In this document: positions 1 to 4,476 of the stretch, in pieces
How positions within the stretch are numbered: position 1 is the first letter of the stretch
Layout of the letters: each line of letters begins with the position of its first letter
DNA from: a virus
Lineage: Duplodnaviria; Heunggongvirae; Uroviricota; Caudoviricetes
DNA: 4,476 nt
Direction: 5' to 3' (one strand)
Virus record (IMG/VR): IMGVR_UViG_2734482551_000008
Notes under the pieces: model-generated
What the model was told of the DNA's origin: nothing
What the model saw: the letters and a program-made list of their open reading frames with translations, nothing else
Database searches by the model: none
Position numbers and translations under genes: made by a program

Positions 1-49
1 GGAATATCTCCCCGGCAGCCTTCAGGGAAAAATATCATCAGATGGCTGC

Positions 50-403
50 TTAAAAAAAGAACAAATGGTAGTGTCCGCTATTGCCAGTACACCTCAATTG
101 CTCTGCGGCTTCGCTCAGAGCTGGCGTATGTTCCCGGCCTACTGATTCACACAGGTAATCAACGAAACCGGACACCAGTTTTCGTTCGCGAGGCGTGATC
201 GCCCCACCGACCGGAGTCCAGTAATCGAAACCCAGTTGCAGGAGTTTGAAAAAACGCTTGTGGAATGCGTAGTTACACACACGCTTAAAGTCTGCGTGTA
301 TCCACTCACCTATTTTGATTTGATGCAGAAAATCGCAACTCTCCGGCGTCGCCGGGAGAAGTAATCCGGAAGAGGTTTGTTTGACCAGTTGTATATGTGC
401 CAT
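50..403 (-). CDS. hypothetical phage protein (about 117 aa), last gene of a coupled pair
   Basis: Open frame from the ORF track (131 aa from 445). I prefer the internal ATG at 401-403 (MAHIQLVKQ...) because it has a GGAG 7 nt upstream (minus strand, plus 411-414), whereas the 445 start has none and only overlaps the upstream gene stop (ATGA). No family recognised from memory. Confidence 0.5.
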   Translation of the reverse strand: MAHIQLVKQTSSGLLLPATPESCDFLHQIKIGEWIHADFKRVCNYAFHKRFFKLLQLGFDYWTPVGGAITPRERKLVSGFVDYLCESVGREHTPALSEAAEQLRCTGNSGHYHLFFF

Positions 404-978: not shown

Positions 979-1134
979 TTACTTCCTGGATTCGTAGTCT
1001 ACGAAGACAGCGACCTCCGTCTGGCCGGTTCGGATTCGTACCTCACAGAGGTCTTTCCTCGTTACCAGTGCCGTCACTATGACGGTTAAACAGATGACGA
1101 TCAGGGCGATTAACATCGCCTTTTGCTGCTTCAT
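979..1134 (-). CDS. hok: Hok/Gef-family type I toxin (51 aa small membrane protein)
   Basis: Translation MKQQKAMLIALIVICLTVIVTALVTRKDLCEVRIRTGQTEVAVFVDYESRK has the Hok family hallmark (single TM helix, then TRKxLCEVxIR...EVAxF..YES), very close to my recollection of chromosomal HokD/Gef. AAGGAG lies 9 nt upstream of the ATG at 1132-1134. The ORF-track 70-aa version uses an upstream in-frame start that I regard as leader sequence. Confidence 0.85.
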   Translation of the reverse strand: MKQQKAMLIALIVICLTVIVTALVTRKDLCEVRIRTGQTEVAVFVDYESRK

Positions 1135-1179
1135 AGCCTGCTTCTCCTTGCCTTTCGGCATGTAAGAGGCTAACCTACA

Positions 1180-1250
1180 TGTGCAAAGCATGAAATTGGC
1201 CTCAGATTAATGTTAAGCGTCTTGCCGGACGCGTAATGTTAACTGGGGCT
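1180..1250 (+). ncRNA. sok: putative Sok-like antisense RNA (position approximate)
   Basis: Inferred only: hok loci encode a short antisense RNA complementary to the hok leader. A possible plus-strand promoter is TTGCCT (1148-1153)-N17-TAACCT (1171-1176). The 3' end and terminator were not convincingly identified, so coordinates are a guess. Confidence 0.2.
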
Positions 1251-1310
1251 TTTCTCTATCTGCCTTTTGGTGTTCATGCCTGAAGCAGATAGCCTCAAGC
1301 ACCCGCAGTC

Positions 1311-1340
1311 ATTCTACTTACCTCGCCAATATGAAATCAA
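1311..1340 (-). promoter_or_regulatory. hok promoter candidate (TTGATT-N18-TAGAAT)
   Basis: Minus-strand -35 TTGATT (plus 1335-1340) and -10 TAGAAT (plus 1311-1316). The predicted start near plus 1300-1305 falls at the GGGTGCTTGAGGC motif, which resembles the 5' end of the plasmid R1 hok mRNA (GGCGCTTGAGGC) as I remember it. Confidence 0.4.
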
Positions 1341-1361
1341 TCAGAAAGGTGCCCCATAAAA

Positions 1362-2048
1362 TCACTCCTTCTCTTCTTTACCGTAGTGGAGTTGACCAAT
1401 TTTGATAAGAGGGCGTCCCTGAGATTTGCGGTGTAGATTGGTATCGCGCAGAGAATACACACAGCCACAATATTCCTGCTGATAGAATTTTTCGCGCTTG
1501 CTGATTTCAATCATACGGGACGAGCCGCCCTGCTTGCGCCAGTTATAATCCCAGTACACCATGCCCGGATAATGCGCGACGGCTCGCCGCCCACAGTCGT
1601 TAACCTGCTGCATATTTTTCCAGCGTGAAATGCCCAGTGAACTGCTGATCACACTGAAACCATTTTCAGCGGCGTACAGCGCTGTCCGCTCAAAACGCAT
1701 GTCAAAACACATGGTGCAACGGATCCCTCGTTCGGGCTCCCATTCCATTCCTTTGGCTCGTTCAAACCAGTTGTCTGTGTCGTAATCAGCATCAATAAAC
1801 GGCACGCCGTGTTGTTCAGCAAAGCGAATATTCTCATCCTTACGAATTAAATACTCTTTCTGAGGATGAATGTTCGGGTTGTAGAAAAAGATGGTGTAGT
1901 CGATTCCCGAGGCCTGAAGCGCCTCCATCACCTCACCGGAACATGGAGCACAGCAAGAGTGCAGTAGTAGTTTGTTTGCCCCGTTTGGGAGCTCCAATTT
2001 GGGCCGTTTGAAATCAGCAACTGTCATAAATATGTTTATTGGGGTCAT
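1362..2048 (-). CDS. queH: QueH-family (DUF208) epoxyqueuosine reductase homolog, 228 aa
   Basis: Translation carries the cysteine motifs I associate with QueH: [11 protein letters not shown] (C32, C33, C36), RCTMCFDMR (C111, C114) and EYCGCVYS (C194, C196), at typical spacing and length. There is no obvious Shine-Dalgarno before either ATG (2046-2048 or the M8 codon), so the start is uncertain. Confidence 0.8.
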
Positions 2049-2195
2049 AAAAATATCAAAGAGTGTAGCATTAGAACGGGGCTATCGGAAACAGATGTGT
2101 GACTGCTCCCCGCCCTTTCGGGTGGTCTCCTGATGATTTGAGGGTGCAGAAATCCCTCCGGTTAAGGATTAAATTTTTAACAGTGCTAAATTTAA

Positions 2196-2552
2196 TTATT
2201 CAGTTCTGGATTTTGTCGCCCTGCGTATCCGCGCTTTCGCGTTACGCTCAATCTGTATCAGCTTTTCTATATTTCTCCGCCTTTCCTGTTCCTCCTGGCG
2301 CAATAGCCTTACATCATCTGCCAGTCTGGTTTCTCTTTTTGCCACAGAGAGCATCCAGTCAAACGGCTCCACAACCGCACCGCAGATTTTACAGCGGACC
2401 TGACGCTCTTTTTCGTCAACCCGTACAGAGGCGTGATGGCAATATGGTCTTTCCGATGGCTCATAAAGAAAATTAACCTGATTACGAGGGTCATCCTCTT
2501 TTACCGGAAATAAAACGATATTGCTTAACTCATCTTCTGGTTTTATTTCCAT
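2196..2552 (-). CDS. hypothetical phage protein with a zinc-ribbon-like motif and a charged C-terminal helix (118 aa)
   Basis: ORF-track frame (137 aa from 2609). I prefer the ATG at 2550-2552 (MEIKPEDE...) because of a strong AAGGAGAGGAG upstream. Contains C-H-H...C-x-x-C (YCHHASVRVDEKERQVRCKICG) followed by an Arg/Glu-rich helix. No family recognised. Confidence 0.5.
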   Translation of the reverse strand: MEIKPEDELSNIVLFPVKEDDPRNQVNFLYEPSERPYCHHASVRVDEKERQVRCKICGAVVEPFDWMLSVAKRETRLADDVRLLRQEEQERRRNIEKLIQIERNAKARIRRATKSRTE

Positions 2553-2609
2553 GCTCCTCTCCTTTGATGCGAATGCCAGCGGTAATTGAAGCCTGATAGC
2601 TAATTTCAT

Positions 2610-3032
2610 TCACAGTATCGCCTCCTGAAAATTACCCTGATAGAAAGCCAGTACACGCTGCATAGCTTCGCTCTTCCGGCACTCGCGACAGATTATATTC
2701 AGGCGCCTGTCGTAGCGGCGTATTTCTCCGTCAGGTAATGACCAGATAAGGTCCGGATCAACAACAACCGGTTTCCTCACCTTTACTCTCGAGAGTTTTT
2801 TGCGGGCGCTTTGCCAGTCCTTGCGAGCCTGTTCAGACGGGAATAAGCCGTAGCCAGAATTATATACATCACCACTTGCGACCAGTTCTATGCATAAGCG
2901 ACCGACAGACGCACGACTGATACCTGTTTCATCTGACAACTGCCGAATCGTGACCCGACCGTCCTGATGCACGAGTTCCACAATTCGCGTCTTCAGTTCT
3001 TCCCGCTGTTCGGGAGTAAAAGGTTTCGCCAT
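2610..3032 (-). CDS. phage-associated winged-helix DNA-binding protein (140 aa)
   Basis: ORF-track frame; AGGAGG lies 4-5 nt upstream of the ATG at 3030-3032. The N-terminal segment VTIRQLSDETGISRASVGRLCIELVASGDV looks like a helix-turn-helix; a C-terminal CxxC (ICRECRKS) is present. Starts 14 nt after the DnaC-like stop. Confidence 0.6.
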   Translation of the reverse strand: MAKPFTPEQREELKTRIVELVHQDGRVTIRQLSDETGISRASVGRLCIELVASGDVYNSGYGLFPSEQARKDWQSARKKLSRVKVRKPVVVDPDLIWSLPDGEIRRYDRRLNIICRECRKSEAMQRVLAFYQGNFQEAIL

Positions 3033-3046
3033 AAATCCTCCTGAAA

Positions 3047-3688
3047 CTACTTAACAACCCTCGAATGGCTAACATTCGGACGCCAGCTCTCCCAGTTAAA
3101 ATTCACCCAGCGNNNNNNNNNNNNNNNNNNNNNNNNNNNNNNNNNNNNNNNNNNNNNNNNNNNNNNNNNNNNNNNNNNNNNNNNNNNNNNNNNNNNNNNN
3201 NNNNNNNNNNNNNNNNNNNNNNNNNNNNNNNNNNNNNNNNNNNNNNNNNNNNNNNNNNNNNNNNNNNNNNNNNNNNNNNNNNNNNNNNNNNNNNNNNNNN
3301 NNNNNNNNNNNNNNNNNNNNNNNNNGATAGCTGCCGCTAAGTGATTCTTCCCGGTACCAGGTTTTCCGCTGAACGCAAAATTTGTACACCCGGTCATCAG
3401 TTCATCGGCGATGGATTTCGCCTGGCTTAACGCGTATCGCTGGCCGTCGTTCTGCACCTGGTAATTCGCAAACGAGCATTTACGGTGCAACGGCTGGATG
3501 CCTGAGCGATTCAGAATTTTTTCCACCCGCAACTGGCGATTCAGGCGGTTGATCTCCTCGCTACGTTTCTGGCCTTCAGCAAGTTGCCACTCGCGCCACT
3601 CCGCTACCGTTCTGAATGGGGCGGTTACATGTGGCGGGGTCAGTCGGCGGATGCGTTCCAGAACGCCGCCTGTCGCAATATTTTTCAT
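3047..3688 (-). CDS. DnaC-like replicative helicase loader (phage replication protein), interrupted by an assembly gap
   Basis: N-terminal 120 aa align by eye to E. coli DnaC as I recall it (MKN..., NRSGIQPLHRKCSFANY, Walker A FSGKPGTGKNHLAAAI) and the C-terminal tail (WVNFNWESWRP) matches the DnaC C-terminus. The middle of the gene is N (3113-3325), so true length and intactness are unknown. Confidence 0.8.
   Translation of the reverse strand: MKNIATGGVLERIRRLTPPHVTAPFRTVAEWREWQLAEGQKRSEEINRLNRQLRVEKILNRSGIQPLHRKCSFANYQVQNDGQRYALSQAKSIADELMTGCTNFAFSGKPGTGKNHLAAAIXXXXXXXXXXXXXXXXXXXXXXXXXXXXXXXXXXXXXXXXXXXXXXXXXXXXXXXXXXXXXXXXXXXXXXXRWVNFNWESWRPNVSHSRVVK
3113..3325. other. assembly gap (213 N)
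   Basis: Uninterrupted run of n characters, directly seen. ORF-track peptides containing X strings across this interval are artefacts. Confidence 0.98.
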
Positions 3689-3694
3689 GGTCCG

Positions 3695-4371
3695 TTACCC
3701 CCTGAAGCCTGGCGGGATCGCACTGTCCGGCAACGAGACGGTGTTAACCTGTCGGAGCAACGTCTCAGGCCGAACACCTTTCGGCGCGAACAGGCCCTGG
3801 TATTCATTGGCGATGCTGTGTCGAATCACCTGCTCAGGTGTAAAACCCTGCTGACGGAATTTTTCCAGTTCCCGTATCGCCCCGTTAGCGCCCTGCTCCG
3901 TTCGAATCGGTTTTCGCAATGCCTGTCTGAACCGGACCCACTCATGCCAGAGTGTTTCCGGCAACCAATCGGGCAGCTCAATAGCCTCCGGCTCGAATTT
4001 TTTAGACGCTCGTTTTTGGCGAGGGGGAGATCAGTATTTAGATCTTCCTCTTCCTCTTCCTCTGGTAACGCTTTTTGATCCGTTTGTGTAACGCTGGCAG
4101 CGTTACCTTTTCGTTTCAGTTCGCGTATTTTTGTTACTCGCTCGTTTGTAACCGCCCGTTTTTTTTAGAGCTTTTTCCGTTATGACGTTCAAAGTTAGGT
4201 AGAGAAAGCCCTCCGTCATTTTCGACCAGCCATCCAACCTGAATTAACGCATCAGCAAAACCAGACATAAAAGTGATGCGATCTATTGCACTTTTTGTAA
4301 CGCCGCGAGCGTTACAATCTGCATTACCGTCTATCATTTGTTGATCCGCCCATGCCCAGAAGCGAATAACC
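3695..4371 (-). pseudogene. DnaT-like primosomal/replication-organiser gene, frame-disrupted and apparently 5'-truncated by the IS
   Basis: The C-terminal ORF (3695-3964) ends ...RQVNTVSLPDSAIPPGFRG, which closely resembles the C-terminus of E. coli DnaT as I recall it (...NTVSEPDSQIPPGFRG); it stops 6 nt before the DnaC-like start, the same order as the dnaT-dnaC operon. The upstream part (4134-4371) is in another frame and a third frame encodes an acidic linker (EEEEEE). Frame changes coincide with a T8 run (4159-4166) and a G5 run (4023-4027). The reading frame runs into the IS inverted repeat at 4372 without a credible start. Confidence 0.55.
4044..4063. repeat. hexanucleotide tandem repeat (CTTCCT)x3, encoding EEEEEE on the minus strand
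   Basis: Directly seen: cttcct cttcct cttcct ct at 4044-4063. Confidence 0.9.
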
Positions 4372-4476
4372 TGAGGTAGCCTGAGTTTAACGGACACTCC
4401 TTCCTGAAATAGAATGGCATCAGAAGGAGCTAATAATGAGCAGAAAAACCCAACGTTACTCTAAAGAGTTCAAAGC
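4372..4476 (+). mobile_element. left end of an IS3-family insertion sequence (IS600-like), continuing beyond the window
   Basis: A plus-strand gene starts at 4436 (AAGGAG 6 nt upstream) with MSRKTQRYSKEFK..., matching the IS3-family OrfA N-terminal motif (R-x-Y/F-S-x-E-F-K; compare IS911 RNFSAEFK). The preceding 64 nt begin TGAGGTAGCCTGAGTTTAACGGACAC, typical of an IS3-family terminal inverted repeat (5'-TG...). Exact boundary at 4372 is inferred. Confidence 0.6.
4436..4476 (+). CDS. IS3-family transposase OrfA, N-terminal fragment (runs off the window)
   Basis: ATG at 4436 with a strong AAGGAG; the first 13 codons MSRKTQRYSKEFK fit the IS3-family OrfA N-terminal motif. Confidence 0.6.
   Translation, partial: MSRKTQRYSKEFK

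Follow-up and report, generated by a model that had tools for sequence, protein, structure and literature searches.

The locus described here raises the question of why a lambdoid prophage would carry an enzyme for the last step of queuosine synthesis. In this pathway, QueA forms epoxyqueuosine (oQ) on tRNA, and QueG or QueH then reduces oQ to queuosine (Q). We analysed a window of 4,476 nucleotides of viral DNA, the minus strand of which carries an unbroken open reading frame at positions 1362..2048, with 228 codons counted from the ATG at 2048 and a TGA stop codon at 1364-1362. The initial annotation had described this frame as an intact, full-length QueH homolog. We found that the product matched Pfam PF02677 (QueH) with E=1.9e-65 and a score of 220.6 bits (cut-off 23.5), and that the alignment covered positions 1-174 of the 175 in the model; this full-model match together with the uninterrupted frame confirmed the description. 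No family besides QueH was found in the Pfam search of the product at E<=0.01, and the QueG domains were not matched. As the profile search gave PF02677 and no other Fe-S family, the proposed assignment to QueH/DUF208 was upheld as well.

The family assignment was further examined at the level of structure. We identified a sequence match to the QueH of T. maritima (PDB 7lc5) at E=5e-22. An AlphaFold2 (AF2) model was built from 49 homologs (pLDDT 80.9, pTM 0.81), and its predicted fold is that of solved QueH, with an adenine-nucleotide alpha-hydrolase-like core. The top five PDB matches of the model were all T. maritima QueH, with target-normalised TM scores of 0.80-0.82 and rmsd values of 3.0-3.6 A; the best one was 7lc5 (TM 0.82, rmsd 3.0 A, 31% identity), and the next matches, TtuA and LarE, were far weaker. 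The match to QueH is real and far beyond chance. The T. maritima enzyme (PDB 7LC5, 7LC7 and 9DEU) shares the Pfam family, the fold and six Cys positions with the query, while the query carries Cys36 in place of Asp13, is extended at the N terminus by about 20 residues, and has a conserved basic tail at the C terminus (residues 204-228) outside the Pfam domain.

All three cysteine motifs, reported earlier as preserved, are present in the product: CCAPC at residues 32-36, CTMC at 111-114 and CGC at 194-196. Alignment with the T. maritima enzyme placed C9/C10/D13/C87/C90/C169/C171 against C32/C33/C36/C111/C114/C194/C196 of the query, and every metal-ligand position is kept with the single change of Asp13 to Cys36. 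Thus, the ligand positions do align with the structurally characterised QueH, and opposite Asp13 the query has the family-typical state. In T. maritima QueH, as Li et al. reportedly described in 2021, the ligand residues serve a [4Fe-4S] cluster and an extra iron. The PDB also holds the C9S (9d86) and D13N (9dco) mutants of this enzyme, indicating that these positions matter to the depositors. We surveyed the first motif in representatives of 50%-identity clusters; of the 150 best ones, 113 carried it, and these read CCAPC in 109 cases, CCAPD in three and CCAPL in one, indicating that the solved T. maritima enzyme is a minority variant among these relatives. The change from Asp13 to Cys36 was therefore rejected as the mark of a divergent subfamily, since Cys is the majority state at this position (109/113). 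Judged from the alignment, the mononuclear-metal site is not identical to that of the characterised QueH, having Cys instead of Asp.

The length of the protein depends on the start codon, for which public databases hold three calls (228, 221 and 188 aa). The initial annotation gave a protein of 228 aa; the ORF of 228 codons is real, but the conserved start is M8 (ATG 2027), which yields a queH CDS at 1362..2027 on the minus strand with 221 aa plus the stop codon. This start is also the one chosen by PGAP, whose CDS WP_012421537.1 has the same span, and ortholog proteins of other genera start at or shortly after the M8 position. The in-frame ATG at 2048 (M1) adds seven residues upstream of M8 and is replaced by ATT or CAC at three loci (L015, L098 and L099). 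M1 was rejected as the start because it is not conserved in orthologs, and M41 (188 aa) was rejected because it would remove the invariant CCAPC motif. No Shine-Dalgarno-like sequence was found upstream of either candidate ATG (2048 or 2027), in agreement with the earlier remark that the gene has no recognisable ribosome-binding site; this absence is common to the chromosomal queH orthologs too.

The choice of start has consequences for how the gene is labelled. PHROG 3217, which is listed as 'unknown function', was built on the 188-aa version from M41 and is therefore N-terminally truncated and devoid of CCAPC; this mislabel of queH in phage annotation resources is correctable. At NCBI the protein is already named QueH (WP_012421537.1), and the exact 221-aa sequence occurs on at least 1000 contigs. 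An NCBIfam search with the protein at E<=0.01 returned no match, and thus the QueH name given by PGAP must have another basis.

We then placed the gene in its surroundings. Along the minus strand, the replication side of the window carries O-like remnants, a DnaC/YdaV-like ATPase, a DUF977/Ren-like gene and a phrog_1621 zinc-ribbon-like gene, and queH is followed by hok/sok, phrog_340 and a truncated NinB-like DUF1367 gene. The replication ATPase (3047..3688, minus strand), the middle of which is masked by an N-run at 3113-3325, is annotated by PGAP as ydaV 'ATP-binding protein' in a 99.9%-identical locus. The DUF977/Ren-like HTH protein (2610..3032, minus strand; Pfam DUF977, E=1.1e-33; phrog_142) is the usual upstream neighbour of queH. 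The phrog_1621 gene (2196..2609, minus strand; PHROG E=5e-56; PGAP start at 2552) encodes a zinc-ribbon-like phage protein of unknown function, with a weak, below cut-off match to Pfam Zn_Ribbon_TF. Downstream of queH, the hok/sok locus (979..1340, minus strand) comprises the hok CDS (979-1134), a mok-like ORF extending to 1191, a promoter-like site at 1340-1311 and a match to the sok RNA family at 1129-1304 (Rfam RF01794; 117 bits against a gathering score of 59; E=3.9e-27). The peptide matched Pfam HOK_GEF at E=9.8e-23 and is labelled hokD by PGAP, and with both the Hok peptide and the sok/hok-mRNA RNA element this neighbour is a type I toxin-antitoxin system. Sok was the sole RNA family found in the Rfam scan of the window. 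The phrog_340 gene of the nin region (PHROG 340) lies at 442-729 on the minus strand. These Pfam, PHROG and Rfam matches substantiate the proposed location of queH between phage replication/nin-like genes and hok.

The same position was found in related prophages, as the initial annotation had suggested looking for. The 99.9%-identical locus in E. coli FDAARGOS_944 belongs to a full lambdoid prophage adjoining ybhA, which runs from integrase, excisionase, Gam/RecE, repressor, Cro, YdaT and replication genes through DUF977 to queH, and continues with hokD, nin-like genes, tRNAs, lysis genes, terminase and head genes. In ST131, O157:H7 and a wood-wren isolate queH sits in the same slot, so that the lambdoid order of replication genes, DUF977, queH and variable cargo recurs in each of the four annotated E. 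coli contexts; the downstream cargo in the latter three is hokD, an NgoMIV-type restriction-modification pair or a DUF1971 gene. Among the 188 viral contigs with queH in IMG/VR, 80 were fetched for locus comparison, and DUF977 lay within the retrieved flank at 75 of these 80 loci and hok at 66. Three of the four E. coli prophages with annotation have DUF977 directly beside queH, and so does the corresponding region of HannyBb, an isolated temperate lambdoid phage, the queH product of which has 96.5% aa identity and is annotated as 'hypothetical protein'. The phrog_1621 gene lies directly upstream of queH in the present prophage type only (14/80 viral loci).

The prophage in the window is itself decayed. 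The O-like replication-initiator remnant (3695..4370, minus strand) is split over two ORFs in different frames (PHROG 6451/2509), and comparison with the intact gene of FDAARGOS_944 revealed two extra A residues in an A-run and a 10-bp deletion, by which it is frameshifted. The left end of an IS600 element (IS3 family) occupies 4371..4476 on the plus strand, with the orfA ATG at 4437 and 99-100% matches to 'IS3-like element IS600 family transposase'. The right end of a second copy lies at 1..97 in the same orientation, with a 100% match to IS600, and in another locus (L097) it falls at the opposite end of one IS600 copy. Through these two IS600 ends, the O-like gene has lost its 5′ end and the NinB-like gene its 3′ half. 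The latter gene (about 98-403/445, minus strand; PHROG 319) covers only positions 1-102 of the 198 of the Pfam DUF1367 profile. Hence, of the prophage setting described initially, the phage genes are real, but the window holds a decayed fragment between two IS600 ends and not an intact prophage. queH is intact despite the frameshifting and the IS600 bracketing of this remnant.

The next question was whether queH belongs to the phage operon around it. We found that homology to other prophage types stops at about 1356-1358 and at 2098, and that a block of 743 bp (1356..2098, minus strand) is common to differently flanked prophages, chromosomal loci and plasmids. Nucleotide homology to the Enterobacter hormaechei chromosome covers 1355-2091, and that to Scandinavium covers 1358-2075. 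The block ends 4-6 nt past the queH stop codon. Both flanks differ among prophages: the 5′ neighbour is a Zn-ribbon gene or DUF977, and the cargo 3′ of queH is hok, a restriction-modification system or DUF1971. With sharp boundaries at 1356/2098 and differing flanks on both sides, queH lies on a discrete insert of the moron type.

Upstream of the gene, this cassette carries a promoter-like element at 2062..2090 (minus strand), which consists of an extended -10 motif, TGCTACACT, at 2070-2062, a 17-nt spacer and a weak -35-like TTCCGA at 2090-2085. The extended -10-like motif stops 34 nt short of the M8 ATG and was found at the same distance in 80 of 80 viral loci, while the background for such a motif is 2% of random 140-nt windows. 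The nearest chromosomal queH orthologs carry TGCTACACT or TGCTACAAT at the same place. A consensus scan upstream of queH called no sigma-70 promoter, since the -35 matches at only three of six positions, and the element was therefore taken from its conservation across loci. This conservation makes the upstream motif a candidate for queH's own promoter. Thus, the location of the gene within a prophage early operon, as first proposed, was borne out, but a mere operon passenger is not what we found, given the discrete 743-bp cassette and its own conserved promoter-like motif.

The orientation of queH is also compatible with a purely lytic role, in which the gene would be expressed, once the prophage is induced, as part of the early-right (PR) operon, so that oQ in the tRNA pool would quickly become Q and phage genes would be translated efficiently, with no gain for the lysogen. 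queH is co-oriented with the cro-O-P-ren-nin unit, a scan of 900-2700 found no intrinsic-terminator-like site, and the isolated phage HannyBb carries the gene. Moreover, infection by a Shewanella phage raised host queG expression and the Q/oQ ratio (bioRxiv 10.64898/2026.03.05.709803, a 2026 preprint), indicating that the step from oQ to Q is modulated during infection. However, the same cassette and upstream motif occur in chromosomes and IncF plasmids without a phage promoter, and queH is intact in a replication-dead, IS600-bracketed remnant. These observations argue for a benefit at the level of the host and for autonomous expression, and we regard lytic-phase tuning as the only role as unlikely, though it is the best placed of the alternatives.

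The distribution of queH was determined next. queH DNA was detected in 995 of 5426 complete E. coli genomes (~18%), 985 of them at >=80% coverage and with about one copy each, and the PGAP label was QueH in every E. coli entry listed. The initial annotation had stated that enterobacteria usually use QueG for this step; this is correct for E. coli, where queG, a separate chromosomal gene, was present in 5426 of 5426 complete genomes, but chromosomal queH occurs in many Enterobacterales genera. QueH homologs at 80-92% aa identity were found across these genera, with chromosomal copies at 92% in Enterobacter hormaechei, 91% in Scandinavium and Kluyvera, 86% in Erwinia, 83% in Providencia and 80% in Photorhabdus. 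In Erwinia the order is purL-queH-glrK, in Providencia queH lies beside tmcA, and in Enterobacter, Scandinavium, Kluyvera and Serratia it lies among metabolic genes; the nearest non-phage copies, which come from Enterobacter and related genera, were found to have no synteny in common. The chromosomal genes of Enterobacterales are orthologous to the prophage gene, and the nearest share with it the extended -10-like motif, the lack of a Shine-Dalgarno sequence and the M8 start. They differ in their metabolic or housekeeping setting, whereas the copies of Escherichia and Shigella alone are in lambdoid prophages; at the loci examined, phage markers beside queH were seen only in these two genera.

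The cassette was also found on plasmids. IncF conjugative plasmids matched 97-100% of the cassette block, and plasmid copies were identified in Klebsiella (16 records, ~84% nucleotide identity) and Salmonella (90.6%). The neighbours of queH on plasmids are fec genes, TonB-family fragments and IS elements. The queH cassette thus behaves as mobile accessory cargo.

Such cargo might be kept through linkage alone. A captured host gene without function in E. coli, carried along by the prophage, would fit the redundancy of queH with the universal queG, the missing ribosome-binding site and the position in a hot-spot of miscellaneous cargo. We therefore looked at selection in 87 prophage-context copies. 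The full ORF was present in 86 of the 87, and the lone exception, starting at M8, is an extraction artefact at L015. The copies formed 22 nucleotide alleles against nine protein alleles, with substitutions mostly in residues 2-10, and pairwise dN/dS was 0.037-0.082 at dS values of 0.15-0.37, indicating strong purifying selection. The QueH protein is maintained by selection. This result (dN/dS 0.04-0.08 with dS up to 0.37), the retention of queH while adjoining phage genes decay, and the independent acquisition of queH by plasmids all speak against a neutral hitch-hiker, and the lack of a ribosome-binding site, being common to the chromosomal orthologs, does so too. We consider neutrality quite improbable. 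Together with the 80-92% identity to chromosomal orthologs, purifying selection suggests that this QueH is probably active as an enzyme.

Another function proposed initially was action on a 7-deazaguanine-type nucleic-acid modification. To our knowledge, the QueH substrate oQ is made by QueA on tRNA only, which counts against an activity of QueH on 7-deazaguanine in phage or host DNA instead of tRNA. Phages do use the preQ0/archaeosine branch for DNA (PMC6884629), but the known systems consist of DpdA with FolE/QueD/QueE/QueC, none of which was annotated in the sampled prophages. Specifically, no DpdA/TGT or preQ0 genes were annotated in the 25-kb intact relative (from integrase to head genes) or in three other prophage contexts, and the proposal is therefore without support. 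The phage copies, at 80-92% identity to housekeeping orthologs, also bear no sign of divergence, and a role in DNA modification is in our opinion very improbable.

A role in conflict was considered as well. Colicin E5 cleaves exactly the Q-bearing tRNAs, and conversion of oQ to Q, or the upkeep of complete Q, could shield Q-family tRNAs from colicin E5-type anticodon nucleases or from tRNA-targeting host defences, and the conflict-type cargo nearby (hok/sok, and a restriction-modification system in the O157:H7 Z1768 prophage) gives this circumstantial support. However, queH matched no PADLOC defence model, and neither did three of the four neighbours tested; DUF977 gave two very weak HTH-type matches only (Csa3 and mad1). 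Furthermore, oQ and Q are not known to differ in their susceptibility to nucleases, and the chromosomal orthologs lie in housekeeping contexts. Counter-defence is accordingly held to be just as poor a candidate as DNA modification.

What distinguishes the two enzymes for the last step is their cofactor. E. coli has no de novo synthesis of B12. QueG is described, in PMC4646009 with citation of Frey 1988, as using cobalamin and two [4Fe-4S] clusters, with the conversion of oQ to Q being cobamide-dependent in E. coli, and QueH has been described as cobalamin-independent (PMC5615194). Since QueG is universal but needs cobalamin and the host does not make cobalamin de novo, the cassette most likely provides a B12-independent route. 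We propose that the ORF product would be a cobalamin-independent iron-sulfur epoxyqueuosine reductase, converting oQ34 to Q34 in tRNA-Asp, -Asn, -His and -Tyr. The 743-bp moron, with its promoter-like element and gene, would have been captured from the chromosomal queH of Enterobacter-like Enterobacteriaceae and would have entered lambdoid prophages of Escherichia and Shigella in the gap that separates the replication from the nin genes, and it would let the lysogen, and the phage in lytic growth, complete queuosine when B12 is unavailable. On balance, a functional QueH on a moron captured from Enterobacter-like chromosomes, which most likely allows lysogen or lytic phage to finish queuosine without B12, is the probable explanation of the locus. 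Expression from its own promoter and the benefit of bypassing B12 are what the sequence comparisons suggest, and a host-level benefit is favoured by the autonomous structure of the cassette, by its presence on plasmids and by the fact that queH has survived in a dead prophage. The selective advantage could also be other than B12 independence, for example under certain iron or oxygen conditions or through dosage.

Several known systems resemble this arrangement in part. Acinetobacter baylyi ADP1, as Zallot et al. are said to have reported in 2017, has both QueG and QueH. S. aureus also has QueG and QueH, and their differing expression was read as a response to cofactor availability (PMC13443448). 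In these bacteria, too, the final step of Q synthesis is served by two enzymes that are not homologous and differ in cofactor; both of their genes are chromosomal, while in E. coli the second enzyme is prophage-borne and strain-variable (18%). The phages with 7-deazaguanine pathways (DpdA plus preQ0/G+ genes) likewise carry queuosine-related genes, but these belong to the early pathway and act on phage DNA, whereas the queH prophages have a lone late-step, tRNA-specific enzyme without DpdA. Other lambdoid morons in the gap between replication and nin/Q, such as hok/sok of 933W-type phages, share the hot-spot, the variable neighbours and a promoter-like signal; in contrast to these, no terminator was detected for the queH cassette, and its cargo is a tRNA-modification enzyme and not a toxin, exclusion or virulence factor. 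Hutinet et al. 2019 reported no QueA, QueG or QueH in the viruses analysed (PMC6884629). The family, the chemistry and the protein name are already known, with NCBI annotation in many hundreds of genomes, and our search of the literature on QueH or epoxyqueuosine reductase with phage or prophage found no paper on phage- or plasmid-borne queH of E. coli. Thus, the possibility raised earlier that the arrangement is already described applies to its NCBI annotation as QueH, but not to any paper discussing it that we found.

The natural, strain-variable and mobile QueH in 18% of E. coli is a ready genetic contrast for the effects of oQ versus Q, and queH would tie prophage content, vitamin B12 and the tRNA epitranscriptome together in a simple, testable way. 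If QueH is active, the tRNA modification status of E. coli and Shigella would depend on prophage content, and the gene would be a phage-borne late, tRNA-specific queuosine gene, a class reported absent from viruses (PMC6884629). If queH does supply a route without B12, about one in five E. coli strains would finish queuosine without cobalamin, and lysogeny would alter how codons for Asp, Asn, His and Tyr are decoded in niches poor in B12 and also in btuB-deficient, phage- or colicin-resistant hosts. More tentatively, queH may be a selected, mobile 'B12 bypass' of the tRNA epitranscriptome, spread by lambdoid prophages and IncF plasmids, through which phages control the conversion of oQ to Q; temperate phages would then hold a switch that is otherwise regulated by the host during infection.

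We identified that PHROG 3217 (annotated as 'unknown function', 188 positions) corresponds to residues 41-228 of the QueH protein (window 1362-1928) and starts at the internal Met41, which is also taken as the start in many GenBank 'hypothetical protein' entries of the queH product. Starting at Met41 removes the invariant CCAPC motif from the protein. A GAGG-like sequence was found directly 5′ of the Met41 ATG, and gene callers were probably misled to this codon by it. At the other end of the protein, a basic C-terminal tail (residues 204-228, window 1362-1439) lies outside the Pfam domain. This tail is kept across enterobacterial QueH proteins, with R207, K208, G211, R212, I215, G218 and Y222 invariant, and exceeds that of T. 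maritima QueH in length. The tail may serve as a tRNA-binding extension.

We then compared the genes around queH in prophages. In the prophage of E. coli O157:H7 Z1768 (L014), an NgoMIV-family restriction endonuclease and a DNA cytosine methyltransferase (L014 3806-5816) are encoded immediately downstream of queH, in the place that hok/sok takes in the window, showing that this position is a cargo hot-spot. On the other side, a zinc-ribbon-like protein of unknown function (phrog_1621, window 2196-2609) is encoded between DUF977 and queH. This arrangement was found at 14 of the 80 viral loci, only in the prophage type of the window, and other prophage types instead encode a DUF1627 protein, upstream of DUF977. 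The near-identical intact prophage of E. coli FDAARGOS_944 (L001) additionally has tRNA genes for Gly, Thr, Arg and Ile between the nin-like and lysis genes (L001 9264-9574), and none of the four encodes a queuosine-family tRNA with a GUN anticodon.

IS600 (IS3 family) ends were identified at window 1-97 and 4371-4476. Because both have the same orientation, the 4.27-kb prophage fragment between them is bracketed like a composite element, and the IS600 insertions truncate two genes, a NinB-like one and an O-like replication gene. The latter, a replication-initiator gene (window 3695-4370), is moreover split into two frames by two lesions relative to E. coli FDAARGOS_944: an A-run (about 4165-4172) has two extra A, and 10 bp are missing at a direct repeat of TCCCCC (about 4026). 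The window prophage is replication-defective. In the DnaC/YdaV-like gene, the central part is masked by a run of 213 N (window 3113-3325). The ORF of this gene measures 642 nt in the window versus 747 nt in L001; as the L001 stretch is ~105 nt longer than the masked one, the N mask is not length-preserving.

Outside prophages, the queH cassette was found on conjugative IncF plasmids beside TonB-family fragments, the fec iron-dicitrate operon and IS elements, as on a K. pneumoniae IncFIB/FII plasmid (L176 5988-6656) and a Salmonella IncFII plasmid (L177 6005-6673). Twenty PLSDB plasmid records carry the cassette, 16 of them from Klebsiella. The closest non-phage copy (92% amino acid identity) is that of Enterobacter hormaechei B56 (L098), where a phage-integrase-family ORF of 234 aa (L098 5181-5885) lies immediately upstream of queH and the two are set between the chromosomal genes GntR/DAO and budR-budA. 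This integrase-family ORF hints at another mobile context for queH.
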